Assembly: GCA_002256025.1 (NCBI GenBank)
Contig: NKIB01014463.1
Location: 1 to 43,125 of the forward strand
DNA: 43,125 nucleotides
Origin: Asterionella formosa
Taxonomy: Eukaryota
Reading direction: 5' to 3'
Shown: piece after piece, positions 2,841-42,093 of the stretch
Layout of the letters: each line of letters begins with the position of its first letter
Numbering within the stretch: the first letter of the stretch is position 1
Program-made: the position numbers and the translations under genes
Notes under the pieces: model-generated
Database searches by the model: none
Told to the model about the DNA's origin: nothing
Seen by the model: only the letters and a program-made list of their open reading frames with translations

Positions 2841-3360
2841 TGGAGCTCGATACGATTGCTGTGTCCACCACTTTAATAGGTTGCAGACATACGGATTCCA
2901 CTGTTGCATCTAGGGCAAAACAGCATACGGCAATTAGAGCTAGATATATGATTACATGATGGATGCAATATTGCAAATTGAAGCTTTGATTGATAGGAAA
3001 CAAATACTAATGATGGCTTCATGCGAAAGAAGTTATTACAATGTTCCTGTGAATCGTGACTATAGTTTGACTCTAAAATTGCATGTGTGATATATACGGT
3101 ATTCCTCTTAACGCATTCTTGAATTTCATACTTACTCTGTCAAACAGAGACAAGACAATACTGGTATGTATTATCGGAAAATTGTCGGAAGCGAAGCTTA
3201 AAGAATGCGTGGTGTATATATACACGTATAAATATGAATATATCCATTTTCGTAACCAGTAATAAGAAGCATACGCCAACGTACCGGTACTCTGACCCAT
3301 TATTCTTTTGATTAGTTCGACCATAATTATTCAGTGCTTTGGAAGAAACAAACTTCTATA

Positions 3361-3910
3361 GGACTTTATGTTACCCCTCCTTGCTAATTTTGGAAAAATC
3401 GGTCATTGAGATTGCCCTCAAGCAAAATAAAGCACAAAAAACCAACAGCAATGTTAAATCAATCAGCTGATTGACAATGGTAGTGCTTTTTGTTTTGTTG
3501 GGGAGCTAATAAATAGGTTTCATAATAACAAAAAACTATAGGAATTCATGCTGACTAGAGACTATTGTAATATGCTTTGGGGCAGCCACTTTGGCATTCT
3601 GATGGATACTATGTGGGCTGTTAGCTTGACAATTTTCATTCGATGGCATTCCAAATATTGATCTCCCAAAAATCCATCTGAGAAATCGCATTTTGCCACT
3701 CCTCCATCGCCACATCTGTCCATTGAATTACCTGTTCATTGCTTCCCTTATCCCTGCTGCTCTGTTCATTGTAGCATCGCTTGAAACCTTCACCAATTGG
3801 TTCCTTGTCTGATTGCTGATTCCGAATTTATGGATAATTCCTTGAATTCAATTACGCAAATTTTCTTGCAAATCATCCCATTCCTCATATCATCTTTATC
3901 GCTGCTTCCA
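3361..3910 (-). mobile_element. Decayed dispersed repeat / transposon remnant, copy A
   Basis: Colinear with 19740-20257 in the opposite orientation. Shares an exact 28-mer (3793-3820 vs 19804-19831) and the same terminus GTAACATAAAGT(C/T)CT. Confidence 0.7.
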
Positions 3911-4871: not shown

Positions 4872-5573
4872 TCAGCCGAAGGCCTTTTCCAAAATGTCAT
4901 TCTCCTTTCGGATTCCGGCAGATTTAGTACCCCCATTCACTTTGACCACTGACACTGCGTCTTCAGGAGGAGGAGGAAGGAAGAATCTTACACGTTTTCT
5001 TGGCCTAAATGTGCTCTGAGTTGTAGTATCAGCTCGATTCTCCTGGAGAGAACAACGCGCCCTTTTCAAGGAGGCAATCGCAGCTTTGCTAGATTTAGTA
5101 CTTGGAGCCAGCACTGGAAGGTCTTTCCTGTTGATACCCACGAGACTTTTCATAGCCCCATACAACAAGGTTTTGGCCTTGTTACCGTTTCCAGCGTCTC
5201 GCCATGCAGAACTGTTTCTTGCTTGAACATATATCTTGGCATTTTCCTTTTCGAAAATTTTGTTGCAGATAGAGTAAGCGATGCGGTAACTAATGTTGTT
5301 GGGTTTGTTCCAATTGTCAACAAAAAGTGTTCGGTTCATTTCCGTTAACGAAATGAAGAATGTATGTCCATCGTGAAAGCTCGGGACCAACTCAATGCAT
5401 CCATTTTTGGAAATGGCTAGAAATATATCTCGGGAGGTCTTCGGTATCCCCTTTGGCAATCTTGCCTCTTGTCTCAGAACTGTATGTTGTGTGGCGGTGG
5501 CGATGCTTGTCTTGTCATTTTCGCTCAACGAAGCAACGACGAGATCACGGCTTCGAGATGTTTCGGGAAGCAT
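4872..5573 (-). CDS. Hypothetical protein with a divergent DUF6824-like domain and a basic NLS-like motif
   Basis: 233-aa ORF with ATG start. DIFL...HDGHTFF...IAYSICNKI...KIYV...W-x7-AK...GAMK parallels the diatom DUF6824 pattern DVLxG...HPGNxxF...IAxxIV...GRFL...W...AREKVxQALR. RPRKRVRF is NLS-like. Confidence 0.65.
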   Translation of the reverse strand: MLPETSRSRDLVVASLSENDKTSIATATQHTVLRQEARLPKGIPKTSRDIFLAISKNGCIELVPSFHDGHTFFISLTEMNRTLFVDNWNKPNNISYRIAYSICNKIFEKENAKIYVQARNSSAWRDAGNGNKAKTLLYGAMKSLVGINRKDLPVLAPSTKSSKAAIASLKRARCSLQENRADTTTQSTFRPRKRVRFFLPPPPEDAVSVVKVNGGTKSAGIRKENDILEKAFG

Positions 5574-6510
5574 TGCTCGTCTTTTATTGGTAAGTGAAGA
5601 GGGAAAGGTTCAATTCGCTTGGTTAGTTGTTGTAATTTGTTAGAAGAATAATACATGTAAAAGATGTGGGTTGGATGATCTTGTCTGAATGATGGCGGTG
5701 TACTGTATGGATGGATGTTCGTCGGGCGCATCGAGTCGTCCATCATACAGCCAATATGCTCCGAGCGGCATCAATCGTGTCAGATGTTGAGCATGATCAT
5801 GTCGCGTTCCAATACCGGTACGGTACCCGGTATACTATTCTTATCAAGAATTTCATTATCTGAGCCCGATGATATTTAAGTAGCTATGTTTATACAGGAA
5901 TGTTCGGGTCGTTCCAAGACGATATGATTCTTGGAATGGAATCAACCTATTGTGCACACAGTACAGGTACCAGGTACCAGGTACCAGTATACCGGTATCT
6001 ACAAGGGTACGCTGGTAAGACGAAAGATGAATATTTACGACAGTTGTACCATGTACGCTGTGTATGTACACATGAATGGACTGGTATTTGTCCGACGGCA
6101 TGCTTTGCTTGTATATGCAAACAAAAATGTGTATATATGTATAAGTAAGTATGCCAGTATGTATGATCCCTGAATATCAATTTATTTTAGACTACTATGT
6201 ATCGAGTCTACATATTTTGTATGCCGTCTACCAGATGTTCAACCTAGGACCAGGTAGCTATTCTAGTGCACGCGCAATGATTCACCCCATCGCATGGCTG
6301 AGCTGCATAGATGTAGCGATGATTTTGATTTCTAGCTTCATGCAAATGATGTGTGCCGTGGCGATTGCTCCTCTTTGTCATATACACACACACTCGCACC
6401 TAACAAATGCAATCATCAGAAACGCGTGAGCACACAAACACACACCAACCAACCAACCAAAAAGCCAACCAGCCAACGAGAGCTATTCAAATCAGCTTCT
6501 CGCAGTCAGC

Positions 6511-7512: not shown

Positions 7513-9977
7513 CACCAATGCAATTTTGCATTTATGTTTTAGTTTGACATTATAGGTCAGATAGAAAATAAAACATTGCACATACTATTATGGTATACTT
7601 GGTACAGCACCTTGGAATTCAAGGGTTTCTAATGATGGCCCTTATTATTTCCACTTTAAATTGGCAACATTTTGGTATGTTATTTGACTGTGGGTCACAG
7701 GTTCAGCATGGATTTGATGTCAAAACTCGAGTTTTGAAAAAGACGACAATGATACATTGTCAGCTATTAAGAACAACAAGATTAGCCAAGGTAATATATA
7801 AGCACTTTGGTCTTCTTCATGGAACTACTTATTTCATCTGTTGCTGATAGTTGCTTGATCTATCTTGATTGCTAGGTCATCCTACTTTGATGTACCATGT
7901 TACCCAGTGTTCTATTAGGGGAATGTGATAATTGGTTTGTTCCTCAGCTGTGCCACAGGTATAAGTATGGAGCATCAGGGACTGTACCTGGTAAGTACCA
8001 GTACCAGTTCTATAATAGTTCCAGGTCTAGGTCTAGGATAAATGGAAGTCTAGACTACATCACTAGGGTACCCCTAGTGATAACGAAGCAATGCATAAAA
8101 TAAACAAGTGTGAAAGATATGTGGAACAAGAAATCCCATTTATGTTGCCATGCCCTAGCTACATTGTAATGCGCATCATTATTAGCACTCCGTAGACCCG
8201 TATTTAAACTGTGCGCACCGGTATCCACCGTATTGTACAACATTTGTTTAACTGTGTTCCTAGCGACAGCGGTACACTGGTAGAATATAATAACGGTATA
8301 ACGGTACTCCTACGAATATAAAAAAGGACCAGAAAGAATACCGGCATGTAGAAAAGCAAATTATAATTATTGTGTGATCTCCGCGCATGCTTGACGAGTC
8401 AACAGTGTCCACCCAATTCGCTGGTAAATACAATAGCACATTTGTGTAGAGATACCACGCTCTAAAATAAAGCCTTGATTTGACCCGATAACATCAATTA
8501 CAGAAACAATTTCACTTCCAGCTGACGATAGTATCGTATCATATTACTTCAGTCTCAGCACACATTCAACATGTCTGCTTTCATTAGTTATCACCAACCT
8601 TGATGTGCACATGAAAATGTGTTGCTTTGCATCCAAGAGACGGTACGATACACAACTTTGTGAACCTTTAGTGGTCAAGCGTCCTCAATGTTTTCTCGTC
8701 ATGGTGACAACGTGAATGATCCATAGTGAGGTTACAATAAATATTTTATAAAGACGCAAGAAGAAATTACATGATCCCAGACACTTTCTCCTTTCTCTGA
8801 AATAAAGGCCAAAGTCACAAGAGTTCATACACCTTTCTTTTCTTTCGTTGTTTACACTCACACAGTACTTTTAAACGTTTTGATAGGGGATGTTTGATTT
8901 GCCAGAAAAGGTGGGAATCCATTTTATTGTTATAATCATTACAAATTCATAATTCATGAATGCTCCACCCCCACGAATTAGTCAGGATGTCCTTGGTCCA
9001 AGAGAGAAAAACTTGTTTTTCTTTTTAAACTCTAATACTGTATCATCTGTTACATTTGTGGAAAAGTATAGCACTCTGGAGAAAAGTGACGAACTGCCGT
9101 TCTTTCGTTTTGAAACAACAAATTTTGGTTCGTCGTGTAAATGCTTTTTCTTTTGGATTGTGTCAAACCGCAACCCTTCGAGAGTAGATGCCAACTTTTC
9201 TTTAATTCAATGAAATGTGCATCTTAGTGGGGTCTAACGCAAACATTTATATTTTTTTCACATACAGCAGGATGGATCATATTATATCCATGCCTATTAT
9301 TAATAACTGTTGTTAATAATAGCACAAACAAACTACACACACCAATGGTGGAGCAAAGATAAGGTAAATAGGACTTGACCACAACGACATGAACAAAACG
9401 GGGGCTTCACTTTTGTTTTCGAACTTATTCCATGATTGATGAAAAACACATTCAATCCCCCAATAATGAAACTATGGATGTTACAAAGGCTCATCGGCCG
9501 GCCTTGGATGTGTGGACGATATATTCCTTACTTGCTCATGTATCTTGTGGCTCACATTCATACACTATATATATATACAGGTAGGTGGGTTGGTGATCTT
9601 TTGATTCTTCTTTAAATAAACCCTGGGGAAAAACACTCTGTGGTTTGTGTTTGTTCATGACATACCTACAATTTATCACACCCCAATAGAACCCATTTTT
9701 GACTTGGCCAAGGAACTTTTGTCACACAATATGACTCAAACACGAAATGAACGGCGTACGTCGATTTTCATATGGAGTTCCTTCTTGTGCCAAGCCTACA
9801 TTTTTTACTAGTTATGATGTATTGAAGAAGTATATCATTGGACTCACTTCTGCTTTCGAATACTGATTTTCCGTCAGGCGAGAGAGGCTTGGAATTGAAT
9901 TGTTTTTCCAGCAATTGTATAGAAGTGGCCATGCCGAGGTGGCCTACAAATTGATCTCTTCATGTCAAGTGAGGTCA

Positions 9978-10021
9978 AATCATGATCTGTTGCTACAGTA
10001 ATCATGATCTGTTGCTACAGT
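9978..10021. repeat. Exact 22-bp tandem duplication AATCATGATCTGTTGCTACAGT x2
   Basis: Two identical adjacent copies at 9978-9999 and 10000-10021. Confidence 0.95.
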
Positions 10022-10151
10022 GTCCGATGAGGCTATCAATTAGTCTTGTGAAACAGGATTTTTGTAGCAAAAAAACATGCCATCTAAATAGTTTATAAAA
10101 TAATGTCAATACATGCAAGTGAAATTACTTCAAATGTGTACGAACCTTGAG

Positions 10152-11063
10152 CTATGCATCGATTTCCACCACTGGGGTATTAGAACAAGCCGTTCGCCAC
10201 ATATTAACAAATCTTCTAGCCATTAATGCCCCTTCCTTTGTTTGCAAACCCAGACCTCCAAATTGCACCGCTCTCTTGCCATCGGTTAGTTGACACTCTT
10301 CTGGTGTCCATTGTACTTGTAATAATTCTTTTTTGGAAACCCATACTTCCATTCTCGATTTGTACATATCCTTTGATATTTTTTTGCGTGTTTCCTCTAA
10401 TGCTTTCTTAACATTCCAATCGACAAATTTCCTATACTTGGGAGGATAGTTTTCATTCCAATCCTTTTGCTCTGCCACATGCTTGGCAAAGGTTGCACCG
10501 ATGTGTCGTACGACTCTGAAATATTCATGCCCAGTCCCAGAGACTAGTGCGGACCCCCCATAGGTGGTCAACATACCGCCATTGGGCAAGGTCCTGCCAT
10601 GTCGTATGAAATAGTTCAAGGGAAACGTATTCAAATCTGCCATCCATCCACCCCCCACACCTGCCATGGCAATCCATCGTTTGTACTCAGCTACAGCATC
10701 AGGTACAAGGAACGATTCGTCAGTAAGGAGAGCCATAAGGTCTTGATAGTCAGGGATCATTCGACAATCGTTTTCGGAGATTATCCTTGGGTCCCACCCC
10801 ACGTCGAACCACGCCTTTTTCCAAGTTTCGACGAGATCGACAGCTGGGTCGTTCGGTTTGAAGGTTGTGGGTGCGTCAAAGTAGGTATAAATACAAGGGC
10901 GAGTTTCGTCCAATGTCTGGAGTCGTCGATGAATCGGTGTCAGGCGACGAGAGAAGATGTGATGCTTGGCAGCGAAATGGACGAAAAATAGCAAAAAGAC
11001 AAGCGCCCCAAACAGATAGACGGTCCGTTTACTGGCTTCCTTCCTTAAGCAGTTGTGCAGCAT
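10152..11063 (-). CDS. Type II membrane protein, glycosyltransferase-like (DxD-type fold, diatom-expanded family)
   Basis: First ATG at 11063, followed by an N-terminal TM (VYLFGALVFLLFFVHFAA) and an RRL motif. Core motifs IYTYF, WKKAWFDVGWDPRII, RWIAMAGVGGGWMADLNTFP. Confidence 0.75.
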   Translation of the reverse strand: MLHNCLRKEASKRTVYLFGALVFLLFFVHFAAKHHIFSRRLTPIHRRLQTLDETRPCIYTYFDAPTTFKPNDPAVDLVETWKKAWFDVGWDPRIISENDCRMIPDYQDLMALLTDESFLVPDAVAEYKRWIAMAGVGGGWMADLNTFPLNYFIRHGRTLPNGGMLTTYGGSALVSGTGHEYFRVVRHIGATFAKHVAEQKDWNENYPPKYRKFVDWNVKKALEETRKKISKDMYKSRMEVWVSKKELLQVQWTPEECQLTDGKRAVQFGGLGLQTKEGALMARRFVNMWRTACSNTPVVEIDA

Positions 11064-11511
11064 TTTTGGAATTGAGAGACTACAGCACTTAGTTGGGTAG
11101 TACTCAGGCAACCGAGTGGTTAGCAAGTCAAAGATGGTCGCAATTACTCCAGAGTACACCACAACAAGAAAGGAGGGTGGAATGGTGATGAAGGCCGAAA
11201 AAACTGCAAAGATACCTGATGGTCATAAAGGGAAAAGGAGTATCGGTACCGGTAGTATTGTTAGAGTCATAATGATGCCTGAATGTCCATTTCATGCGGA
11301 GGTAATGTCTCTACGAAATACTCGCATTCTATGTATGTCACAAGGGAAACAAATGCATGACAACTTGTTGCAACAGGTCTTGTCCCTCTGGTTGACTGTT
11401 GATACTACCAGTACCAGGATTGTATTATGTATACCTAACCAATAGTAACTGGTAGTAGCTGCTAATGTAGAATGTAGGCTCACTGCTGATCTGCTGATTA
11501 TCATATGTCGC

Positions 11512-11753: not shown

Positions 11754-12311
11754 TTAACGTTGCAAATGCCGTTTGTGAATAAAAATTAAATGCCATCCAA
11801 AGGTTGTTTGAATGGGACCCATCGTTGTTTGTATGGGAGATGTAGGAGAGAAACATGCCTTGTCAAAGGGCGGTGCCATGTCTCCTGGTTTGAATCGTCC
11901 TAAATATCCCCCTGCTGCCTTGGAGGGACAAGTGGAGAGTGATTTTGCGACAGTTGCGAATTTTGCAGCATCATTTTTAATGTCAAGATCTTTCAAGGTC
12001 GATTCTTTTTCGCAAAGGATATGAGACGCTTCACACCAAGAACTGGGTGGAAAGAGGACACCGTACATATACCATCCACCCAATAGTAAGACTATAATGG
12101 TGACTGGACTAATAGGAATATCCCTACCAAAGGGTAGTGGTGTATTTCTATTATACCAGGGTTTCGCGTCTTCACGTGCTTGTGCCATTTTGCTTTTCAG
12201 CGACGTACTAGCAGCAGCAGCAGCAGCAGCAACTGACAGGAGAAGGTAGCAAAACGCCAATGAAGAATAATGGGCGTGCTTCCATGGACTCGATGATGTT
12301 GCTGTAGTCAT
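11754..12311 (-). CDS. Parvulin (PpiC-type) peptidyl-prolyl cis-trans isomerase with N-terminal signal/TM segments
   Basis: Motifs ASHIL, FATVAKSLSTCPS, GGYLGRFKPGDMAPPFDKACF, GPIQTTFGWHLI. The start is placed at ATG 12311, ahead of a signal-like hydrophobic stretch; the ORF extends upstream to 12491. Confidence 0.9.
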   Translation of the reverse strand: MTTATSSSPWKHAHYSSLAFCYLLLSVAAAAAAASTSLKSKMAQAREDAKPWYNRNTPLPFGRDIPISPVTIIVLLLGGWYMYGVLFPPSSWCEASHILCEKESTLKDLDIKNDAAKFATVAKSLSTCPSKAAGGYLGRFKPGDMAPPFDKACFSPTSPIQTTMGPIQTTFGWHLIFIHKRHLQR

Positions 12312-13000
12312 TCTGGATAGTATCAGTAGCTCGCAGTCGTGAGCAATAGTTTCACTGCAGGTAGCAGGCAGCGGGGTGGATGAAGCTATGTCCAACTCAC
12401 CACAAGGAACAAATGCGATGTGATATGAAGTGATGTATGCAGCGCTGCTGCTGATACTACAAGCTACGACTGTCAGGATAGAATCAGCCATGATTGGATA
12501 TTTTGATGCCGGCAGCTCTGTACTACCGGTGGTACCTGGTACCTGGTACCAGCACCAGGATCATGTACCGGTGCATGCCGGTCGTAATAAACCTCAGGTA
12601 CTAGTATACGTAGGTATACCGGTAGACTTGTTAGACACTGGTACCAGGTAACAGGTAAAAGTACCTGTACGCTACAAGGTACGCTGGTGGTACCTGGAGA
12701 AGCTGGCACTGGTCGCAGAGAATGATGAATACCATGTTAATAAATGAGAATCTGTTTTATAGCCCATTCCCAATCCCCTTTTTCGAGGCAAATATTCATT
12801 ACGCTGCCTGCCAACAAGATCTGCGCTTCCCTAGTTTGTTAATGTAGGTGAGTCCCCAACCACCTTTCATGAACAAGGGTGATTGTCTTAACTAAAGTGT
12901 TAGGAGAAACTCTGACTGCCTAGGGAGGCAACACAAGCTGCTTGTAGGGTGGCAAACCAACTTTTTCTCACACACTAGACAAGTTAGCGTGGGTCTCTAA

Positions 13001-13065
13001 AACTGCGGGAATCGAACCTCACAACCTCAGATCAAAGGCAACTTGCTCAACGAACTACAACTGTA
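13001..13065 (-). repeat. Degenerate tRNA-like / Pol III B-box element within a repeat
   Basis: The minus strand has GGTTCGATTCC in an imperfect hairpin. It shares GCAA(T)CTTGCTCAAC...TACA with 19516-19533, next to the second tRNA-like element. Confidence 0.35.
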
Positions 13066-13877
13066 TGCCATTTCCTTCATATGATGATACCATGTGAATA
13101 GTACATAGGCAATCCCAAAAAATGACGCCACCCAAAAATCATCTTGACGGACTGGCAATCCAATCAAGTGAAAATTTTCAAAATGTTTTTGAATTTCCTG
13201 TTGACTCCTATTGTTATTTTTTCATGGGCCAAATGGTATACTTGAAAGCAGCACTAACTAAAAGAAGCTTACATGGTGTCGAACATTCAAAGGATAGCAA
13301 GGCAAGTGCCGGTATATAACATAATACCTACATACTGGTAAGTATATACATCACGCCCAACCAAAAGATGATTTTCTCATAAGGAGTATTTACCGTTGAT
13401 CACTTTTCAACTATAGATACATATGTTTTGCTTTAAACCGTTCAAGTCGACCCTATATATCGTTTACTCCAGTATTAATATATATTTGTATAGAAAGTAC
13501 CGGTATACTGTTCGAGTTTTGTAGTTCATACTGTCGTATATACCCACCCAGCCACGAACAGGTATTTTGGGTACCAGTACCGTAATATGCTACTCCTACA
13601 TATGCAGTATCACTAAAATTGAGGATGATTCTACCGGTCATAAGTCAAGTCTATCGTAAGTACTGGGAGTGCCGGACTGCATCGTAGCGCATTGGTGGCC
13701 CGTCGGCCTCATTTTGAATCACGCCTGGCGGTTCAAATCATGTGTATCTTGATTCTTAAAATAACATCTCATTTTGTAGACTCGTCCACTTTGAATTGAC
13801 CTGTCTGCTCCTCCATATACTTACCGGTATATTAAATACATGATCTGATCGATAGTTAGCCTTTCCTATTGTCGACC

Positions 13878-17299: not shown

Positions 17300-18085
17300 G
17301 TTGTGGTTCAGACTTGATTTGGAATTTTGAAATTGTGACCTTTGACAAAGATTCCTGCGCCTCGAAAGCACTTTTTGGTGCAGGATCGAACCAAACAGAA
17401 TACTAGTATATTCATCGTATCATATATACGTATGCATATGTGTAGTACTCGAGTGTCATCAGCAAGCAGGGCCGCTCGTCGTCGATTGTTGCTGGTAGGT
17501 GCTCCTTGGTCACAGCTGTTGCCTGTGCCACTGAATAATGGAATAACCATGCACAGTGTTTCAATCGTTCACTTTGGTATCTATGTATTTTGTGTTCATA
17601 GATGATCCGGCCTTTCCGCGAGAGTAACGTTAACCATGCAGAGACAATACTACCGTACCAGGTACCAGCACATAAAATGAAATCATACTAACATACAGGT
17701 CCGATCTAAATACAATATGAATAAATGCTTGTATACTAAACTAGAGTGGACAATGTTTATTCACATACCGGTAGTTTATACATTACGTAGAGACCCTGTA
17801 CATAGCAGCGGGAATGACTCAACGCTTTTCACTATGGAGTCGTGAGCGTTAAGGAAATGTCATCAAAGACATGATCATATACCGGTATGCTACTGATACA
17901 AGGTATGCCTGGTCGTACCAGGTACCCTGGTACCCTGATAATTTTTAGCTACTATACAAGGTACCAGGTACTGGTACCTGGTACCAGGTAGCATTACTCC
18001 ATGGTGCCTGATGCCTTATACTCCTTTTGAGTCCCGCATGAGGTGGCTACAGTCAAAAAAGTGGTTGAAAGGACGGAATTAAAGG

Positions 18086-18548
18086 CTACATACGGTACGT
18101 GGTACCAGGTACCAGGTAGCATGGTGCATGGTACATTCTCACCATAGTCATGTCAACTTTGGTCACGGCAGCCTTCACTTCTTCGCCCTCGCCCTCAACT
18201 GCAGCAGCTCCACTTGGAGGGCGAAGTTGATACACTTGTCGTGATTCTCTATGGTAAAGTACCGGAAGCATATCTTGGCCAATCAGTTGTCTGAGTTGCG
18301 CCGCTTCTTTGTTGTTTCTTGCAATATCCATGCGATCTACATGAATACCTAGTTCTCCTTCGATTTCCTGGACGCTCTGTTCCATGGCATCACATTCTGG
18401 GCTCAAACCTGGCGGGACTCTAAAGAAAATAAGCGGTGTGTATTTCTTTGTCGACAGAAAAGGGAGCATGTTCAGAAAAGGAACTCCTTCATAGCGAGTG
18501 CTAACAACAGTAGCTAGCAAGCAAGGAGGCGGAAAGGAGGATTCTCAT
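18086..18548 (-). pseudogene. Thioredoxin-fold-like protein gene, apparently frameshifted near the start and truncated or unspliced at the 3' end
   Basis: PLIFF-x6-SPEC-x-AME...VDRMDI...LPVLYHRES resembles a thioredoxin fold with SxxC. ATG 18548 (MRILLSASL, signal-like) is 1 nt out of frame with the main ORF. The C-terminus runs into GGTACC repeats. Confidence 0.55.
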
Positions 18549-19092: not shown

Positions 19093-19395
19093 CCTTGCAA
19101 ATAAGAATACCGGTAGATTCTCTGAATGACCCTTAGGCCTGTGAAGTATATATACATGAATGAACACAACCACTCCCTCCTGATTGCCTTGCCAATACTA
19201 CAAATAAGCATATGTGTTAGTAACATGTCATATCTAGATACATGGTGACAGTCATTTTATGTCAATTAAATTTTATAGTACATTAAAGCTATCCAATAAT
19301 TGCACTTGGGCCCACCAAATAGATGGACACAATTAGTACCGGTTTTATTCGTCCGTACGGTACAACGGGACCAGGGACTACATGAAAAAGACAGG

Positions 19396-20257: not shown

Positions 20258-20664
20258 GAAGGCATGCATTTGTTGAGAGGCTCTACCGTGCCTACTAAAA
20301 TTTCGGTGAAACTCTAAAACAACCTGGAAAATACATATGTTTGACTAGTTCTGCGAAGGTTGCATGTGTCTGTTCAATTATCTATACCCCATACTCCTGT
20401 ACCGGTATTGTATTTCTGAATGATTGTACGTGGTACCACCGTCAAGGGGAATACGCACTTACTTTCTACTTTACCACTGTATGCATGTGTTATGATGCTG
20501 CATTGAATCTCCTTACTCCCTGATGTCCTTGCCTCTCGTTCGTTCGGCTCCAGTCGCCTGTAGTCCATCGAGTATACTAAACTAAATGTTAATTCATTTT
20601 CTTCCAGCGCAAGGATACCGATACTTAATTCAGTCGGTCTAGGCCTCACCTCATTGTCAGAATC

Positions 20665-20692
20665 ATGATATCAACATCAGAAAACGCCGACG

Positions 20693-24260: not shown

Positions 24261-24859
24261 GATGAGATTATACCGGATGAAAATATCTCGTCCTTCTATC
24301 ACATTTATAAAGGACTTTGTGAGATGAATTGTGATTCCAAATGAATTCCAAAACATTTTGACATGACGCCGTTGGAAAAAAGTGTCTATACACACACTTG
24401 TGTACCGGTTCCTATACATATTTTCTTACTTGAATAAAATACCAGTACATAGCAAGATTCCTCGAGCGATGTATAGAGTAAGTGAACTCATTACCGTTCG
24501 CACGTCAGTGCGAATCTCTGACATGCATCATCATGTGCTTACCCTGGCACCCCCGGTACCTGGTACCAGGTACCATCCTGTATTTCATTCCTCGTCGTAC
24601 GAACCTACTGGTACCAGGTACTATGATTTCAAATGGAGAATTGTGTACAATTCTACAAGCAGTGAACAGTAAACTAGATTCGACCGACCCAGACGCATGT
24701 AATAACGGTGCTCCAGCCAAAAGAAGGGACGAGGAAGAATGTGTACAAGAATTCTGCAAACAACGAGCAATAGGTTTCATTCGTGGATTCTTCCTACTCC
24801 GAACTTTCTGCTTCTTTCCTGCTCCAACGAAAATAAAAGCATTATACAGCATAGAAAAG

Positions 24860-27529: not shown

Positions 27530-28912
27530 CGTCTCTGTGTGTGTAAAGAGTTAGTATTTGAGTTTGGTCATGTCAATTGCATTCTGTTTGTTTGATCGTG
27601 CTTTCATGTCAGTTTGTCTTTTGATTGAACTTCACCTGTGGGCTCATTCTGATTGTCATTGAACCACTTGAGATTATTATTCTAGCCTACAAACGACTCT
27701 TACCTTCAGTTCCAAATCACACTTTTCAACTTCTCTTTTGTCTTGAGATCTAATTTGTGAATCTCTGTCGAGGCGATGGTTTATATTCAATTGCTTGTTT
27801 CTTCGTTTGTTGTTGTGAACATTTTTGCAAAACTGAGGATCACAGTACACACGAGAGTGGTTTGAACCAGTTTCTGGGAGTACTGGTAACCAGGTACCAT
27901 CAGGCAGTGCTCAGTACACCTGTAAATATCCATTCTCCGAATGACAAATAATACATTTACCAGCATGCCACAAGCAACCATCACAGCAAGGCATTCTTGC
28001 TCTGTTTGCCATCAGCATCAATCTAAATATGAAATCTGGAACGCTTTCCCAGATGGAAGGTGCAGGGGCAATAGCAAGTTTCATTGGCACTTCTTAGAAC
28101 GAAGTCGTCGCCATCGTCCCTAGGAAACTTTTAGTGGCAGCAGGACAGACATGACCCAAAAGGTGTGGGTCGATCTCATCAACATCTGGTTGAACGAATG
28201 TAAGTGCCGTCTGTCCTGTGACTATTGTTCCTCGAAGAACAATTATGACGTATGCAAAAAGGCAGCATGACGAAAATACAAGGAGGTGGTTGCTAAGTAC
28301 GGAGTATCCTTCAACTCCTGGACCTTCTTTGGCATGTAAAATGTAAATACCACGTGCATTCTTGGCTAGTGGTGTTGATCCCCATTTCAACCTTGAACCG
28401 TAAAGGAAATCTTTTGCTGATGCATCATTTATATCGAAGCTGCAAATACAATCCAGTACAATGTACAGTAACGAGAACAAGCAAGGTAGAAACCTTTGTT
28501 TACATACAGAGAAATTTTTCGTTTTTCGACGAATACCTGATACCATATACTAAGCACCATGTACCTAATGGAACACACGTACATATAAACTGTACATATG
28601 TGCGGCTATATAATATATGTGTGTTGTACATGTTCGTTTGTCACCACTGCTCCTACGTCGTTTGTTGAAGGAGGAAGGGAGACTGGAGTCGTGGCTAATG
28701 GGCATGACAAAATAACATAAGAAGATGGTATTCTCGTCCTGATGCTATGCAATTCTCGTTTTTAATTGTCGTCACTTCTCCCTCTTTCGATTGATTTCCT
28801 TATGTAGCAATAAACCGGTAGGCTTTACTACCAACTCTAGTTTCTTATTCAATAGTTCATGTCGTTCTTTCCATTATAACTTATACATAACTACCGGTAT
28901 GTAGTCATGGAC

Positions 28913-29449: not shown

Positions 29450-30395
29450 TGTTGTTGTAAATTGATTGAATCTTCCTCTAGCAAAACGTGCAAACACAAC
29501 GTTAGTGCATGTTTATTTGTTTCTTGACAATTAAAAAGCCAACAGACAAGTTCTAAAGTAGAATCAGCAACGTCGCTTCATTGTTTCTTGGAGCTCCGCT
29601 GTTTTCCAGGTTGATACTTACTCGTTTGAATAAGTCAAGAGTAAACCAATTTTGGAGTTTATGAGGTTCTTGTGCAATAGCAAAACTAATTGATGGTGCA
29701 CCTTTGAACATCCCTTCAGGTTTTTCTGCACTCATCATCATAGGTGATAGCATTTCGTGTCGCAATAGACTTGTAAGTAATTTCCACAAGTGTAAAGAGT
29801 GTATGTGGCATGGTGCACTTGGCCGGGCTTGGTGGCGTTGATTCGAAGATTTGTACTCTTGTGAGGTAAAATATGTTTTTCATGAAAAGGGCTCAGTAGT
29901 AGGAAGTACCGGAACCAGTAGTGAACAATGAATATGAGTATGAATGAAGAATGTTATATACGTACGTGAAAAAACTGCAAAACTTTTTAGAAGTATTCAT
30001 ATATGAAAACAGTAAATCCCTTTTTACTATCACACAATACTTAGTATTACATTATTTTCAACGTGTAAAAATATATATTTGAATAATGCTGTATCATCAC
30101 ATACACGTCCCTGAGTACCAGGACCAGGTATCGTCCCCATAGTACAAAATGCATACTAGCTTATTGCCAACGAGTCCTACATCCATGAATACTGATACAA
30201 TATCAAAATGGCCGAACAAAAAAGCATGCTGCTTCCTGAGGAATGTTTCTCAACTATGAAACTCATGTATCTTTGCCTTTCATACTCACTAGCTTATGAT
30301 GCAGCATCAGTCATGGAGAATATACTTTTAGACTACCATATCCTTGCACATGGTAAAAGCTATTCTCGGTTGTATCAAGCTTTCCGTGTATCTAT

Positions 30396-31606: not shown

Positions 31607-31783
31607 CTTGATGGATGTGAGATACTTAATTAAGCGGTGTAGCGGAACGGAAACGAACAAAATAGAGCAAGATCCATTTCAGAATACCGGTATTCATATA
31701 TACCGTAATCAATTTGTTTACCGGTACCTGGTACCATACCAGGTACTAGCCCCTAAACCGGCTACTGTTGACCCCATATGATA

Positions 31784-32042: not shown

Positions 32043-32880
32043 GGAAGGTCAATTAGTCTATCTAGCAGGAAGGCTAGCAGCAGAGAAGAGAGAAAGTAAG
32101 TGGCACTAGATATTACTAAGAGCACGTAAGAGTCTAAGTGAAGAGAGCGCGACCCAGCCTATGGGAAGGAGTATGGACCTTTTCAACAATGATACCGGTA
32201 GTATTACGGTAGACTGGACCAGCTACATTTAATGTACCCTGGTACCAGGTACCTGGTATACAATACATATCATAGTATCAACTATCAACCATCATTGACA
32301 GCAATTCCCGCTCCAGTTATCGTCTTGCCACTAGTTTTATGCTAACATTGCATTTCATAATGAAATTGTGTTGTTGCTGTTTGTTGTGGGCGGTTGTGTG
32401 TTGTGAAAACAGTCTTGTTCTTGATTTCGAAGATGTCATTGCTGTTGCGGCACTCAAAATGCCTTGTTTTGGTTCTTGGCTGGCAGTGAGATCATCCGGT
32501 ATCATTTTCACTTCATTGCTTGCGTGCTTGTTGTGGGCGCTTGTTGTCACTTGTGTGTACTGAAAAAAGTCCTTTTTTTTTTGTTTGATATTGATATTGT
32601 AGATGTTGTTAGTTGCTGTTGTGGCGCTTGTGATAGCATTTGATGCTTTAGTGCTGGGTGACATTTCCATTGTGGCAATGGTTGGTTGTTGGATGAAGAA
32701 GGTTCTTTCAACCCATTGATTTTCGTTTTCACTTGCTGCATTCAAAAAAAGACAAGAACTCTTCGATTTATTTCTGTGAAGCAACCACTGGTAGCACTCA
32801 TCATGGTACAACATTGTTTGCATACTCTGAAAAAAATTATTATTCTTACTTCGCAATGTTCAACGGCACTTCTTCATCTT

Positions 32881-34526: not shown

Positions 34527-34573
34527 GAATCCAAATCTGAATCGGTATCAGAATCCAAATCTGAATCAGTATA
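34527..34573. repeat. 24-bp tandem duplication (GAATCCAAATCTGAATC(G/A)GTAT..)
   Basis: Two near-identical adjacent copies upstream of the 34647 ORF. Confidence 0.85.
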
Positions 34574-34646
34574 CCGGTAGACCACAGCAAACATCGTTTC
34601 GCCATTTGTGACTGTATAAAGACTTATTATTTATACGAAACATAGT

Positions 34647-35435
34647 ATGAAAACGAGAACCAAGGGAACACTCGAGGAACGAATCGAGAAAGTTCGATCT
34701 GATTTGGAAGACGTGAAAGAAAAGCGAAAGGTTGCGCAATATAATTGGGCAGAAGCAGAAGCGGCCCATTTGCAAACGATACACCAACTGCACAATCAAT
34801 GGTTGATATGCAAGGGTCGGGTCAACATCCAACTGTACACCAAGGTCATGGAACGGGAGTTCGGGAGCAGGCATCTTATTCCGCAAAAGGTTGTCACGCA
34901 GCAAGCACACTTGTGTCGATCCTTGCATCACATGGAAGTTCACGAAATAGCACTTGCATTAGTGGACGAGCAGAACAAGGAATTGGTCAAAATGATGAAG
35001 AAACAAATTTTGGCGATTCAAGAGGAAGAATCAAATGTTGAGATGGAACTGATGAATCAACTATGTAAGGTGGATGCCATTGTCAAGACGATGCAAGCTG
35101 CGTTGGGCATTGTACCTGATCCCGATGATGATTGGCTAGTGTCTCTCTCTCGGTCCACCATGAGTCGACGTAGCAGCACTTCCTCTCAAGCTTCGCCCCA
35201 TCAAGGGATGATACAAGCGTTCAAAGGGTTCTGGTCATTTAGAACAAGGTCATTATCATCATCGTCATCATCTGGAAAGGACAGCAAGGCCGTTGCTCAC
35301 ATCTTGGAAGAAGAACAGACACCAGGAGAACCCACAACACCACTGACAACAGTGGAGGACGACAGAGATTCTTTGACTACCAGAGTGAGCAATCGACGCA
35401 GAGAATCATTGGCCATGATTACCGGTACACAATAA
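34647..35435 (+). CDS. Hypothetical coiled-coil protein, 262 aa
   Basis: ATG-initiated ORF with heptad-like E/K/Q/L-rich helices and a Ser-rich C-terminus. No family recognised. Confidence 0.75.
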   Translation: MKTRTKGTLEERIEKVRSDLEDVKEKRKVAQYNWAEAEAAHLQTIHQLHNQWLICKGRVNIQLYTKVMEREFGSRHLIPQKVVTQQAHLCRSLHHMEVHEIALALVDEQNKELVKMMKKQILAIQEEESNVEMELMNQLCKVDAIVKTMQAALGIVPDPDDDWLVSLSRSTMSRRSSTSSQASPHQGMIQAFKGFWSFRTRSLSSSSSSGKDSKAVAHILEEEQTPGEPTTPLTTVEDDRDSLTTRVSNRRRESLAMITGTQ

Positions 35436-35712: not shown

Positions 35713-37130
35713 TCAGATATCAAGGAGAAGACGATTAGGATCAGAAACCTTGTCAGCAATAGACTTGAGAAAAGTCACACCTTCACGTCCGTCAATAAGT
35801 CTATGATCGTAAGTCAAGGCCAAATACATCATGGGACGTGCAACAACTTCCCCTTTTGCATTAACCACGGCTCGCATTTTGGTCGCATGCATACCCAAAA
35901 TGGCGGACTGGGGAGGATTAATGATCGGGGTTCCCATCAATGATCCAAACACACCACCATTCGAGATGGTAAAAGTCCCTCCTGCCATGTCATCCAAGGA
36001 CAGCGACCCGTCCTTGGCTTTGGCACCGTACATGGCAATGTTGCGCTCGACATCAGCAAAAGACATGGCTTCCGTGTTCCGTAAGACTGGAACCACAAGT
36101 CCATTGGGACTGGCAACTGCAACACTAATATCGCAATACTCTCGGTACACCACTTCCATGGTTTCGTCATCAATATATGCATTGACTGATGGGATTTCTA
36201 GTAAGGCAGCAGTCGCTGCCTTGACAAATGCTGACATGAATCCCAACTTGACCCCATGTCGCTCCATAAAGGCATCCTTATACTTGTCTCGAGTTTCCAT
36301 GAGATTTCCCATGTCCACTTCTTGAAATGTCGTTAGCATGGCAGCAGTATTTTGTGCATCCTTGAGGCGGACTGCGACTCGTTGGCGCATGCGAGACATT
36401 TTAGTACGACGTTCGGTACGTTGTCCCAAAAAGGCTGGTGAACCAGTGGGTGTTGGTGGTGCTGATCTTCCGGCAGTCGGTGGTGCTTTGGGAGCCGCAG
36501 GAGGAAGTTTCGCCGCTGCAGCAGCAGCAGGCGATGGAGTAGCAACAGGTGAAGCCGCAACAGGTGAAGCCGCAACAGCAGCAGTCGCCACTGGTTCTGG
36601 CGCTTTAGCGGCAACGGCCTTGGTGGTTGGCGCACCTGCTCCATCTGGAGCTACCGCATCAGTATCCAAACGAAACAGGGCGGATCCGACAGCCACAATG
36701 TCATCAACTTCACCTAGAATCTCCACAACTTTTCCTCCTTCTGGCGCACGAACGTCCACGCTCACTTTATCGGTTTCCAACACCACTACAACGTCATCCG
36801 CGTGCACATAGTCGCCCGGGGCACACGGCAAGTCAACAATGACACCTTCAACAATCGAGTCTCCCATAGTTGGGACCTGTATCGGAAATAATAATTTCAT
36901 TGAAATTAATTCAATTTGTGAGCGACATTCAGGGGGGACTCCGCTGAAGATTGACTCCTTCGATTGGTCCGCAAGGACTGCAACAACAGATGGCACGAAG
37001 CACGCGCACGTACCTGAACGATCTTGATGGGCATCATCAAGGCAGGCCGTGGGGAGTAACATCTGGAGACGTAGCGAGCCGCTGGGGCACGACGCGTCGC
37101 AGCGGTAAGCAGACGAGCAAAAGTCGTCAT
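35713..37130 (-). CDS. DLST: Dihydrolipoamide succinyltransferase (2-oxoglutarate dehydrogenase E2), mitochondrial; exons 37130-37014 and 36876-35713, about 426 aa
   Basis: Arg-rich presequence [14 protein letters not shown], lipoyl motif ETDKV, Ala/Pro linker, [31 protein letters not shown] 137-bp GTACGT...ATACAG intron in phase 0. Confidence 0.96.
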
Positions 37131-37681
37131 TGTGGACGACGTTGTTTTTGTGTTTCCTTCAGGAAGAAGCAATCAAATGGTTCTCGCAGATGATTTTGTC
37201 GCAGCTATTTTTATATATAAAAATGATGAATATAAATATATTTATTCATGTATATATATATTAAAGATCAATAAGTGCAAATACTGTCTGTCATGCTGGT
37301 AGGCACAAATGCAACCTCCAGCAGATGTCAGCGCGCAGTTGAACGAATTATTTTTACTACCGTTGTGCTGATATTATGGAGTTACAGCAGAAGACGGTTC
37401 TTACAATGAGGGGAAAATATAGCTACATTTCTCGTTGACCGCAACTTACTTCAGATCCAACTGCATACCGGTAGTTACAGGGTAGACGTACATTCAGCGA
37501 AGGTACCGGTACCAGGTACCGGGTACTGTTTTGGGACGAAATGCCGTACGAACTCCTTTTCCTACGTATATCAATACCAGTGTATATGAAATGTGTTTTG
37601 ATATATATTAAAACATACCGGTAGAAATAAAGAATATATGTTTGTGGCCACTTTTTCCTCACAAAGAAGCACAAGCAGAAT

Positions 37682-40600
37682 TTACTGATGTGCGCCCTCA
37701 TCAGTCGAAGTAATCTCTACTAAAAGGTCGCCTCCATCTACTTGATCCCCAGCAGTCACTACAACCCGTTCCACTTTCCCAGACACTGGAGAACTCACAA
37801 AAGTCTCCATCTTCATGGCAGAGAGCGACAACAAGTGATCGCCTCGCTTAACGATATCGCCCTTGCTCACCTTCGTTTCCAACACTACTCCAGGCATGGG
37901 TGCACCGACACTTCCGTCGACTCCATCCAATGCCTTGGCACGTTTCACAGTCGCGGTACCGACAGTCCTATCAGTCACGTGAACCGTGCGAGGACTACCA
38001 TTCAACTCAAACTGCACCGACACCATTCCATCCTTGTCAGCGGCACTCACACCAGTCAACTTCACCATCAGCTGCTTCCCAGGTTCCAACGTCACAGACA
38101 ACTCCTGGCCAATCTTCATACCGGTTAAAAACGTCCGGGTATCCAAATAACTCAATCGGCCAAATTCAGACTTGTGCTCCATGAAATCATCAAACACCGA
38201 GGGATACATGGCGTGGGACATGACATCGACATCACGAATGTCCAGATTGCCTTTTTTACGCCCAGACTCGGGACCCCACTTTTCCTTCAGCTTGGTGCGA
38301 GCTGAGGCTAAATCCATTGGAGCCATATCAGCACCGGGGCGACCTTCAAACGAGACAAGTCCATCGGTTCCCTTGATTGTCTTTCCTTTCAGCACTCGAC
38401 TTCGGAAGGGTTCAGGAAATCCATAAGGAGGGATTCCAAGGCAGCCTTGGAAGTACTCAACCACAGATTGAGGGAAGTTTAGAGTCTCGGCCTTTTCGAC
38501 GATTTCTTCTTCGGTCAGTTTATTTGACACAATGAATTGGGCCAAATCACCTGTCACTTTGCTGGACGGCGTCACCTTAATGATATCACCTAGTAATCGA
38601 TTGGCAGCCGCATAGGCAGTCTTGACCTGGGACCACTGCCCAGTTAAACCAAGTTGTGTTGACTGGAATAAGAGGTTGGTGTATTGTCCACCAGGCATTT
38701 CGTGAATGTAAACGTCGGCAGAGCCAGTCTTTTGACCAGACTCAAACGGGGCATACAAACCTCTGCATTCTTCCCAGTATTCATTGACAGTGGCAACTTC
38801 ACTCAAATCCAAACCAGTGTCAAGATTCGTCCCAGCGGTACTGGCAACAATTGCCCCCAACGATGGCTGAGAAGTAGTGCCAGACATGGCGTCCATGGCA
38901 GCATCAACGGCATCGGCTCCAGCATGACCAGCGGCTAACATACTAGCCACTCCAGTTCCAGCTGTGTCATGTGTATGGACATGAATAGGCAAGTCGGGAT
39001 GCGCCTCGCGCAAAGAGCTCACAAGTAATGTTGCAGCTGCTGGCTTGAGCAACCCAGCCATATCTTTAATGGCAAGCACATGAATACCCGCATCAACCAA
39101 CTTCTGAGAAAACTTCAAATAGTATTCCAGGTCGTACATGCCACGCTTAGGATTGCAGACATCACCAGTGTAACAAATGGCTGCCTCAGCAATCCCGCCA
39201 GCTTGGCCAACAGCATCGATACCCAATCGCATATTTTCAATATAGTTGACCGAGTCAAAAATACGGAAAACATCCATGCCATGGTCCTTGGCCAATTGGC
39301 AAAACTCGTAGACCACGTTGTCAGGATACGAAGTGTAACCAACAGCGTTGGCTCCTCGAAGAAGCATCTGGAACGGAATATCAGGGACAGCTTCTCGAAG
39401 GTGTCCCAATCGATCCCATGGGCATTCACGTAAGAAACGCATAGCAACATCAAAGGTGGCCCCACCCCAACACTCAAGAGAGTAGGCATTTTGAAGTGCA
39501 ACTTTCGTAGCGGGAGCAATGTTGAGCATATCAATTTTACGAAGGCGGGTTGCCAAGAGCGATTGATGCGCATCGCGCCATGTCGTATCAGTTATGAGCA
39601 ACCCTTCATGCTTTCGAACAGCCTTGGCAAATGCCTCGGCGCCGTCATTGTCAAAGATTTCCTTTAGTGAACGTCCCGTCTTGGGACGTGTTTCAAGTGT
39701 TGGAATAAAAGGATCAACACTGCTTGGAGGCGGACCCGCAGCACCAAGCTCCTTGGGAGTTCCATTAACAATCACGTGTGCAATGTACGCCAAGAGCTTT
39801 TGGGCACGATCTTGCTCCTTGAGAGGAGCCAACAAGTACGGGTTGGCGGCAATAAATCCAGTATCAACTACACCATTCAAGAACTCTTCATTCTCCAAAA
39901 CATTCAACAAAAATGACTTGTTCGTTGATACACCTCGCACACGGAATTCCCTCAAGGCACGAACAAGTTTGGCGGCTGCGTCTCGACGATTGCGAGCCTT
40001 GGCCGTAATCTTGACCAATAAAGAATCGTAATGAGGCGAAATGCGGGCTCCTGGGAAACCTGGACCATCGTCCAATCGAATTCCCATCCCGGCAGGCATC
40101 CGAAATACGTCAATGGTTCCAGTGTCGGGACGAAAATCTTTGGATGGATCTTCCGTGGTGACACGACACTGCATGGCAAAGCTAGTTGGTTCGATAATTT
40201 GGTCTTGAGTAAGGCCAAGTTCTACAAGTGTCTTACCCGAGGCAATCATGATTTGCGACTAAATATAAGAAAAAGCGTGAGAGGGCAGTTGGGACGAACA
40301 TACATGCCTTCTTCAATGAATACATGTCATACCTGCACAACGTCCACTCCAGTAATCTCTTCAGTAATGGTATGTTCGACTTGAACTCTTGGATTGACTT
40401 CCATAAAGTAATGATCTCCGTGCTTGTCCACCAAAAATTCCACAGTTCCAGCATTTCGGTACTTGGCACCCGACAACATGCGAACAGCATCCGCGAAAAT
40501 GGCCTTACGTGTGTCCTCTCGCAACCCCACCGCGGGTGCTGTCTCAATCACCTTTTGGTGCCTTCGCTGCACGGAACAATCTCGGTCATACAAATGAACG

Positions 40601-42093
40601 ACATTACCAGTCCCATCTCCCAAACACTGAACTTCGATATGACGAGGGGCCTCGACATACTTTTCCACAAAGCAGCGGCCATCGCCAAAGGCATTGAGAG
40701 CTTCATTGGAGGCTTGGGTAAACATGGGTTCCAGCTCTTCTGCCGTCAAGACAACACGAATTCCACGTCCACCACCTCCCATGGCAGCCTTGACAATGAC
40801 AGGATAGTTACATCTGTTCACGGGGTTGTCAATGTAGTCTCGAGCATCTCTGACGGTAGCAAAGGCAGCGGCTGATCCAGGGACCACAGGCACATGATTT
40901 TGGATAGCCAGTTCTCGGGCTGTCGTCTTATCACCAAATGCTTGGAGATTGGCAACGGTGGGCCCAATAAAGGTGATGCCTTCAGCCTCCAGAGCAGCAG
41001 CAAAGGCTTGGTTTTCCGACAAGAACCCGTAGCCCGGGTGAACGGCTTGGACGCCATTGTCCTTGCAGATCTTGACTATAGTAGCAATGTCCAAGTATGC
41101 AGCCACAGGAGACTTATCGGTGGATAGTTGGAAGGCTTGGTCGGCCTTGTACCGGTGCTGGGCGAAGCGGTCTGTTGGTTGCCATGGTGTGGTTGCAAGT
41201 AAGTGAGGACCATGTCAAAGGGTGTAAGGGAATCATACCGACACGGAATGTTGGGTGATGAAATGGTGAGTGATGTGGTACAGAAAAACAGTACCAGACT
41301 GGACGTGGAAAAAACTAGCGCGTCATGAACCCATGCAGATCTTCCTCTGGTTGAAAACATCACGCGACAATAACGAAAAATTCAACAGAACGAGAGACAA
41401 ATGATGACAATGGCGCTCATGATATACATTGATGTTGACACCCCATTTGGAAACAATACAAAATGCGAAGGACCACGAAGAAATGGGGGATTCATAGCAG
41501 AACACCTTTTGTATGACAATCTGTCAATAGTGCAGAAACATACCGGTAATGCCTTTAACAAAAGTAAAGATATATATATAGATATTTTCCTTCAGAGTCG
41601 ATACGATGGAAATCAACAGCATCTATTGGACATGGCAGGCAAAACGAGATTTCGTGCACAAACGATGCGACAACGCACGAAGTGACGTTCTGAAAACAAG
41701 TCGAATCAAGTCATTGTAGGTGTATAAGACTCGTCGGCCTATGGGCCGAGTCTCTGGCGAATGTAGGAGGATGTGTTCTATCAAAAGTTACATACCTTCG
41801 TAGGAATAGATTCCAGCAGTCAAAGACCCAACTTCGGCTGCCGCTCGATTAATACGAGTAGCAATTTCTCCTCGATTGGCTGCCAAAATTTTGGTAAAGG
41901 GAGGTTGTCGGTAGGCCTTTCGAGCCACATTTCGGACTTCTGGAGGAGCCTCAACACTAGAAAGCGTCGATGTGGATCGAAGGATCTGATGGCTAGATGT
42001 TGTCAGATAGTAAGGCACGCCAGTCAATGTGGCAGTGGCATTAACTCGACGCAGAGCCGCCAAGCGTTGAATCCCAGTCACTCGTCGAAACAT
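37682..42093 (-). CDS. PYC: Pyruvate carboxylase, mitochondrial; exons 42093-41796, 41171-40333, 40258-37682, about 1237 aa
   Basis: Biotin carboxylase motifs [33 protein letters not shown]. Carboxyltransferase motifs [22 protein letters not shown]. Biotinylation motif AMKM. GT-AG introns of 624 and 74 bp keep the frame. Confidence 0.97.

Follow-up and report, generated by a model that had tools for sequence, protein, structure and literature searches.

A TA-punctuated palindrome family in a contig of the diatom Asterionella formosa: candidate excision scars of a mariner-like transposon

Introduction

Which process has placed 21 copies of one palindromic octamer, TACCGGTA, in 43 kb of diatom DNA? 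We addressed this question in contig NKIB01014463.1 of Asterionella formosa, analysed over 43,125 nt (hereafter the window); all density figures refer to this single stretch. A preliminary description of the same DNA had likened the word to the cyanobacterial palindrome HIP1 and had proposed methylation-coupled repair, biased conversion or a chromatin or boundary protein as its source. Here, we lean towards a different origin: TACCGGTA and a one-base-longer sister word, TACCWGGTA (W, A or T), would be footprints left when a mariner-like transposon (of the Tc1/mariner kind), which targets TA and has CC...GG ends, is excised.

Enrichment of the octamer in the window

The 21 copies lie at exactly the positions listed previously, and their number is far above chance. 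In 100 dinucleotide-preserving shuffles the word appeared 0.23 times on average and at most twice, and none of the 100 reached 21. Counted on both strands, its 42 occurrences compare with 1.22, 0.48, 0.72 and 2.11 expected from Markov models of orders 0, 1, 2 and 3, respectively. TACCGGTA thereby ranks first among the octamers of the window by enrichment, 20 times over the order-3 expectation, and the claimed over-representation holds against a Markov background at orders 0 to 3. Orders 4 to 6 expect 12.6-40.6 copies on both strands; this is self-fitting and no refutation, because the models were trained on the same 43 kb and 42 of the 63 counts of TACCGG are TACCGGTA itself. The word is sharp, as its one-mismatch neighbours pooled amount to 37 against 14.8 expected, and the only strongly enriched forms among them are the CpG-transition neighbours TACTGGTA and TACCAGTA (together 13, 2.3 expected).

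The flanks of the window copies share no sequence and hold no information content. When tested as MITEs (miniature inverted-repeat transposable elements) or transposon fragments, the copies revealed no terminal repeats or common flanks, and the direct-repeat families of the window were tandem arrays of the family described below and nothing else. The flank and direct-repeat analyses thus agree with the earlier statement that the copies are not fragments of a repeat family. The dismissal of transposons that had been drawn from the unshared flanks stands for such fragments; excision scars survive it, because scars by their nature carry no flank.

A HIP1-like process, in which methyltransferase-linked repair or biased gene conversion makes or keeps the palindrome by point changes genome-wide, appears improbable in the extreme. 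It would suit a palindromic octamer that is strongly over-represented and built around CCGG (and CCWGG), and the 13 CpG-transition neighbours are as expected from deamination of methylated sites. However, loss of one base from TACCWGGTA would give the same 13 forms, and CCGG alone is not enriched (154 on both strands, 125-189 expected). Coding DNA, which makes up 52% of the window, contains one of the 21 copies, and that copy sits on a six-base gain; both copies that can be compared between sequences show a six-base difference instead of point changes. Furthermore, Pfam identified no methyltransferase or Vsr-like nuclease among the window genes. Methylation-coupled repair and biased conversion are thus left unsupported.

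A family of TA-delimited palindromes

The octamer is one half of a TA-CC(W)GG-TA family. We counted 21 cases of TACC-N0-GGTA and 24 of TACC-N1-GGTA; for the latter 0.66 are expected, and its centre base is A in 14, T in seven, G in two and C in one, while all other spacings of TACC-Nn-GGTA are at background level. Written as TA-X-TA, X is CCGG in 21 cases (1.15 expected), CCWGG in 21 (0.54 expected) and CCAG/CTGG in 13 (2.3 expected).

Family units also join into 13 TA-delimited tandem arrays with units of 6 or 7 bp, arranged head to tail such that neighbouring units share their TA. Using a search pattern that accepts only C-run/G-run centres, we found CCGG, CCWGG, CGG, CCG, CCAG, CTGG, CAGG, CCCGG, CCGGG and CCCTGG as array centres. 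Altogether, 34 of 84 unit sides abut another family unit, and the other flanks are uninformative. Where CCWGG units are neighbours, W is the same in three pairs and different in four. A scan of viral contigs with an array returned 0 matches, and the related palindrome TACATGTA is not enriched in the window (1 copy, 0.98 expected).

Aside from the family words, the top hexamer of the window by enrichment is CGTACG, another GTAC-containing palindrome, with 24 occurrences on both strands (6.9 expected at order 3).

Six- and seven-base differences between sequences

Insertions or deletions of 6 or 7 bases at the sites had been set down as the prediction of a footprint origin before any sequences were compared. 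Three comparisons were possible, all at the protein level: the copies at 35420 and 20400, and the array at 18103-18118. At both comparable copies, a two-residue (six-base) difference falls on TACCGGTA; an empty site with one TA would fit this, as would further placements of the six bases.

The copy at 35420 lies in the last codons of open reading frame (ORF) 34647-35435, a real, lineage-restricted gene, and is the one coding copy, as previously described; the other 20 are non-coding. The window protein and three same-species variants end in ITGTQ, whereas all nine homologues from outside the species (52-63% identical) end in I(T/N)Q, with a two-residue gap at TACCGGTA. The six extra bases fall within ATTACCGGTACACAA, and removal of CCGGTA gives back the I-T-Q codons; two placements of the six bases fit the protein comparison. 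As the six bases are absent from two separate outgroup lineages, the change is a gain.

The copy at 20400 lies inside a spurious ORF that gene callers have recorded from three contigs. A strain 96% identical over this stretch is two residues shorter exactly at the word (NTGVW vs NTGTGVW). At the array 18103-18118, another strain has one CCTGGTA unit (7 bp) fewer, and loss of this unit is the sole way to get from the window's CYLVPGTTYRM to that strain's CYLVPRTVCNL. Two sites served as controls: between a GATase gene and its paralogue, TACCCGGTA (position 23201) shows substitutions and no indel, and a TACCGGTA within a gene of one relative (locus L067) aligns without gaps to nine homologues. 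An exact look-up of 20 ORFs lying over copies found 18 without a record, one singleton and one that was informative, and a protein search with the non-coding ORF 37426-37716 gave no match.

The six-base difference at both comparable copies supports the earlier idea that a sequence-specific process creates the word. Could the 6/7-bp palindromic unit propagate on its own, as a micro- or minisatellite driven by slippage, hairpins and microhomology-mediated deletion, with neither a transposon nor a factor involved? The 13 arrays with their 6- or 7-bp period and the strains that differ by one identical 7-bp unit are in keeping with this, and the TAC...TAC microhomology in the word could drive six-base deletions. 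However, 18 of the 21 TACCGGTA copies are solitary, and slippage cannot make a single copy from a bare TA. The arrays are not a product of simple slippage either, because W differs between neighbouring units as often as it matches, and the change at 35420 is an insertion by outgroup comparison. We therefore consider a self-propagating satellite very unlikely.

Excision scars as proposed origin

The family anatomy, the six-base difference at both comparable copies and the 7-bp unit by which strains differ at one array are direct observations; from these we infer the transposon itself, its end sequence, the joining chemistry and the promoter preference. In the proposed mechanism, small insertions at TA dinucleotides would convert TA into TA-CCGG-TA or TA-CCWGG-TA. 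The transposon ends would begin with CC(A) and finish with (T)GG, and insertion would duplicate the TA. Upon excision, a few terminal bases would stay behind on each side and end-joining would seal them into a palindrome, in which the middle base, where retained, would resolve to A or T. Re-insertion in the TA of an older scar followed by a new excision would add 6 or 7 bp and thereby build tandem arrays. Scars would accumulate wherever insertion is tolerated or favoured, that is, in non-coding and mainly promoter-side DNA, and some may double as factor-binding sites. Such an origin would plausibly cover the TA punctuation, the variable centre, the A/T middle base, the mixed-W arrays of 6/7-bp units, the sharpness of the word, the absence of shared flanks, the avoidance of coding sequence and a lineage-specific burst.

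Placement relative to genes

Placement was assessed on our own rough gene map, built from ORFs, Pfam matches and a codon score for which the Pfam-supported genes served as training set; two of its ORFs, 28094-28546 and 32317-32856, are doubtful. The 21 TACCGGTA copies are distributed as follows:

Intergenic DNA containing a 5' gene end: 13.45 kb, 18 copies, 1.34 per kb
Convergent intergenic DNA: 6.43 kb, 1 copy, 0.16 per kb
Introns: 0.69 kb, 1 copy
Coding DNA: 22.55 kb, 1 copy, 0.04 per kb

On this rough map, TACCGGTA is thus in excess upstream of start codons, as a promoter palindrome would be, and copies are found 25-639 bp from the nearest start codon that they lie upstream of. Two long upstream stretches, 1-1778 and 42092-43125, contain no TACCGGTA. 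Five TACCWGGTA copies in mapped coding sequence are not truly coding; three lie ahead of position 24623, where a better start codon is found, and two belong to the read-through tail of a truncated gene. The copies and arrays are listed below:

3282..3289: solitary TACCGGTA in the 2 kb that separate the convergent ORFs 1779-2840(+) and 4872-5573(-)
5813..5832: 3-unit array (CCGG, CGG, CCCGG) headed by TACCGGTA at 5813-5820, in the divergent intergenic region 5574-6510
5962..5997: 4-unit array (CAGG, CCAGG, CCAGG, CCAG), then TACCGGTA at 5990-5997
11247..11254: TACCGGTA, 85 bp upstream of ORF 10152-11162(-)
12533..12548: 2-unit array (CCTGG, CCTGG) in the divergent intergenic region 12492-13868
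12617..12624: TACCGGTA, 126 bp upstream of a PPIase gene (11754-12491, -)
13498..13505: TACCGGTA, 371 bp upstream of a PDZ gene (13869-15308, +); the overlying ORF is on record as a singleton
13822..13829: TACCGGTA, 47 bp upstream of the same PDZ gene (13869-15308, +)
17651..17664: 2-unit array (CCG, CCAGG)
17766..17773: TACCGGTA, 519 bp upstream of GATase gene 16084-17247(-)
17880..17887: TACCGGTA, 633 bp upstream of GATase gene 16084-17247(-)
17916..17990: two arrays, at 17916-17932 (CCAGG, CCCTGG) and 17962-17990 (CCAGG, CTGG, CCTGG, CCAGG)
18103..18118: 2-unit array, ~20 bp past the point where ORF 18086-18469(-) diverges from full-length 194-aa homologues
19108..19115: solitary TACCGGTA, 639 bp upstream of ORF 18086-18469(-)
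20400..20407: TACCGGTA, 265 bp upstream of a ferric reductase gene (20665-22767, +)
24557..24620: two arrays (CCTGG, CCAGG; CTGG, CCAGG) in the short divergent promoter between a GATase gene (23022-24419, -) and ORF 24623-25687(+)
28892..28899: TACCGGTA immediately beyond the stop of ORF 28913-29512(-) and 346 bp upstream of ORF 28094-28546(-), which is uncertain
31685..31733: TACCGGTA at 31685 and 31719, the latter as first unit of an array (CCGG, CCTGG); 25-59 bp upstream of the longest start of an SDR gene
32193..32258: TACCGGTA (32193-32200) and a 3-unit array (32235-32258: CCCTGG, CCAGG, CCTGG)
34572..34579: TACCGGTA, 75 bp upstream of ORF 34647-35435(+)
35420..35427, + strand: TACCGGTA in the last codons of ORF 34647-35435, whose protein ends in ITGTQ
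37466..37525: TACCGGTA at 37466 and 37504, the latter as first unit of an array (CCGG, CCAGG, CCGGG); 404-442 bp upstream of an E2 acyltransferase gene (35713-37062, -)
37616..37623: TACCGGTA, 554 bp upstream of the E2 gene and 66 bp past the pyruvate carboxylase stop
41541..41548: TACCGGTA in intron 1 of the pyruvate carboxylase gene (-), which spans ~620 bp (~41173-41795)

This intron is long compared with the ~70-bp other intron inferred in the same gene.

Recurrence upstream of E2 in relatives

To look at related species, metagenomes were scanned with the E2 protein. This gave 80 loci (L001-L080), none of the same species and with a best full-length identity of 76%. The 28 relative loci of at least 4 kb (309,604 bp) contain seven TACCGGTA (1.78 expected) and four TACCWGGTA (1.82 expected). 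The high density of the window, 0.49 copies per kb, is thus lineage-specific.

Measured from the start of the conserved lipoyl domain of E2, the window copies lie at about -606, -644 and -756, and those of relatives at -614 (L001), -642 (L050), -687 (L034) and -700 (L079, the +1 form). In this 200-bp zone, which was chosen after the data had been seen, the 25 non-duplicate loci hold four family-word matches against 0.106 expected. By rough gene calls in 24 of the relative loci, matches fall as follows:

E2 upstream intergenic DNA: 20.8 kb, 6 matches
Other 5' intergenic DNA: 38.1 kb, 1 match
3' intergenic DNA: 24.5 kb, 0 matches
Genic DNA: 154 kb, 2 matches

The E2 upstream region of the relatives is thus 11 times denser in matches than their other 5' intergenic DNA, and the word is retained at the orthologous promoter of E2, the one gene compared. 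The E2 genes of the relatives are 68-78% identical in DNA, while the upstream regions of four E2 orthologues could not be aligned and no synteny was found between the relatives' E2 loci and the window. The three nearest genomic E2 loci (L001, L041 and L034) all carry TACCGGTA; in a quick E2 tree, the motif-bearing loci do not form one clade (6 changes; 103 of 500 shuffles are equally low). None of 43 transcript-like loci contains TACCGGTA.

Two further patches were seen in these loci. Upstream of the E2 orthologue in L034 (3300-3680; ~70% DNA identity), TACCGGTA is accompanied by a few degenerate family words clustered together and by a doublet of TACCGGTACCGGTA, in a window-like arrangement. 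In L053, from a GC-rich (61%), unrelated organism, an AT-richer intergenic patch (3162-3663) has seven copies of TATGCATA, another TA-xy-y'x'-TA palindrome, within 500 bp.

Placement and recurrence bring in a further explanation: an ordinary cis-regulatory palindrome, TACC(N0-1)GGTA, bound by a dimeric transcription factor or general regulatory factor (e.g., MYB-related), with normal mutation, selection at promoters and indels that are incidental. In Phytophthora infestans, the identical octamer is listed as M94 with the "high-confidence" motifs over-represented in promoters, where it is paired with M93, TACATGTA (PMC3597505). This sister word is bound by the MYB-related PsMyb37 in yeast one-hybrid tests and in electrophoretic mobility shift experiments, and knockout of the factor lowers target expression (PMC11134190). 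Of the 21 window copies, 18 occupy 5'-containing intergenic DNA within the 25-639 bp range given above; in relatives, the E2 zone holds its four matches in 25 loci despite upstream DNA that does not align and despite the lack of synteny, and the transcript-like loci are free of the word. On the other hand, a six-base difference falls on the word at both comparable copies, and one of these is coding and faces a convergent gene, a position that is senseless for a promoter site. The two spacings, 0 and 1, occur equally often, a dimer site would not be expected to form overlapping 7-bp arrays with mixed W, and binding matrices are typically far less sharp than this word. Moreover, the two long upstream regions 1-1778 and 42092-43125 are empty, relatives have ~20 times fewer copies, and the E2 zone behind the 4/25 count was set with the data in view. 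Taken together, we regard a purely regulatory origin as rather unlikely.

Evidence against an excision origin

Several results weigh against the excision-scar reading. No transposase domain was detected by Pfam in any window ORF of at least 90 aa, and no TA-flanked CC...GG element with real terminal repeats was found in the window or in L001-L080; the search for such elements with 14-nt terminal repeats returned 11 pairs, all of them array-to-array. A candidate MITE at 12533-12657 and 17975-18118 was rejected, the interiors between its inverted arrays being unrelated. The 5-bp centre of TACCWGGTA lies outside the footprint length of 2-4 bp quoted for Tc1/mariner elements (PMC7913693), whereas the 4-bp CCGG lies within it, and the classical 3-base mariner forms are not enriched in the window (TACCATA, 3 vs 4.3 expected; TATGGTA, 5 vs 4.2; TACCATGGTA, 0).

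The comparisons between sequences leave room for other histories as well. The direction of change is established only at 35420. At 20400, three six-base deletions fit the shorter strain; all destroy the word and one alone leaves a clean single TA. A palindrome with TAC...TAC microhomology could simply be prone to deletion. Furthermore, TACCGGTA is solitary in 18 of 21 cases while TACCWGGTA stands within arrays in 18 of 21. Finally, TACCGGTA is not placed at random within non-coding DNA (5'-containing vs convergent intergenic DNA, binomial 0.006 by copies and 0.069 by clusters), and neither this promoter-side bias nor the recurrence upstream of E2 is predicted by neutral scars.

Given the promoter-side bias, the E2 recurrence and the Phytophthora precedent, TACCGGTA may have a regulatory role. 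Of the processes proposed earlier, a chromatin or boundary protein survives as a possible function, given motif M94 and the E2-upstream recurrence in other species. We also entertain, as a tentative possibility, that the stramenopile promoter palindromes of the form TA-xy-y'x'-TA (TACCGGTA/M94 and TACATGTA/M93) began, and in this diatom still arise, as Tc1/mariner-type excision scars; this overlaps with the excision-scar reading and is not additional to it.

Window genes and further observations

The window encodes two HSF-type factors, a ferric reductase, a pyruvate carboxylase, a 2-oxoacid dehydrogenase E2, two GATase paralogues and an SDR (Pfam). This gene content points to a stramenopile alga, and the sequencing runs in which the stretch is present are metagenomes from fresh water or lakes and one culture of an alga. 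Introns in the window are short, and Rfam and tRNA scans of the window revealed no RNA genes.

The gene copy at ORF 18086-18469 is truncated. Homologues of 194 aa that are 95-97% identical have 61 more residues, which are found nowhere in the window, and the break lies ~20 bp before the GGTACCW array. We considered the array at 18103-18118 as intronic and rejected this, as the last 61 residues of the homologues are nowhere in the window. The first 12 residues of the same gene (MRILLSASLLA...) are in another frame at 18548-18513, an apparent frameshift. The two GATase_4 genes, 16084-17247 and 23022-24419, are 78-86% identical in DNA across portions of their coding sequence and stand ~6.9-7.0 kb apart; their upstream regions could not be aligned and both have arrays.

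At the start of the window, a 22-bp unit is repeated perfectly in tandem 5.7 times (positions 1-126), and the next 1.6 kb contain neither an ORF of at least 90 aa nor a family palindrome; the repeat may be a contig end or a satellite. Between convergent genes, the 2.6 kb at 7513-10151 have no long ORF and contain TACCTGGTA (7985), GGTACC (8067) and an exact 22-bp repeat in two copies (9978-10021). This region may be an unrecognised gene or a decayed element.

Significance

Transposon excision scars are usually regarded as rare curiosities. If scars indeed occur at about one per kb, supply the top word of a region and lie mainly in promoters, they would count as an independent source of mutation and could mislead motif discovery. 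This question has been raised and set aside before: TACATGTA occurs upstream of 12,070 Phytophthora genes, and taCATGta, cited in that paper as the Tc1 excision footprint in C. elegans, was rejected by the authors as its origin because the word is so abundant and conserved (PMC3520976). As the identical octamer is an oomycete promoter motif and recurs at one orthologous diatom promoter, the family suggests a way, open to testing, in which transcription-factor sites could be sown by mobile DNA. On visiting open promoter DNA, a jumping gene would then leave ready-made dimer-binding sites and rewire regulation with none of its own sequence remaining.

Comparison with known systems

Literature text searches returned no paper tying TACCGGTA to diatoms or to footprints. 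A match to the word in 10.1101/116012 proved to be a primer only, and the text of a protein-binding microarray paper on Phytophthora infestans (PMC11267843) shows no CCGG-containing motif.

Cyanobacterial HIP1 (GCGATCGC) is equally common inside and between genes and is thought to arise by point changes. Like HIP1, the window word is an over-represented palindromic octamer that is spread out and has no shared flanks. Unlike HIP1, it avoids coding DNA and shows a six-base difference at both comparable copies.

The Grainyhead/CP2 site, given as AACCGGTT (PMC9869538), has the same ACCGGT core in an 8-bp palindrome and differs in the outer bases; the resemblance is one of words alone.

Phytophthora M94 and M93 (the latter, TACATGTA, also described as motif-1/AM-20) share with the window the identical octamer, a stramenopile host, the excess upstream of genes and the palindromic form TA-xy-y'x'-TA, and in the window, too, the word is promoter-side and recurs at one orthologous promoter, that of E2. 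In contrast, TACATGTA itself is at background level here and the window density is far higher; the passages on the Phytophthora motifs mention neither a +1 spacing variant nor arrays, and the binder that they describe is that of TACATGTA.

Tc1/mariner footprints resemble the family in having TA duplicated on both sides, a few end bases in between, a palindromic form and a choice of A or T at the unpaired centre. Canonical Sleeping Beauty footprints, for example, carry 'cag' or 'ctg' between duplicated TAs (PMC5224488), and the 5' repeats of the Mos1 tribe are reported to start with CCAGGT (PMC3419177), ends that would supply CC(A) and (T)GG. Such footprints are described as rare and scattered, whereas the window has them, on the excision-scar reading, as its top octamer, in tandem arrays and at ~1 family member per kb, with a 5-bp centre beyond the usual length, with no excess of 3-base forms and with no element in the window or the 80 relative loci.

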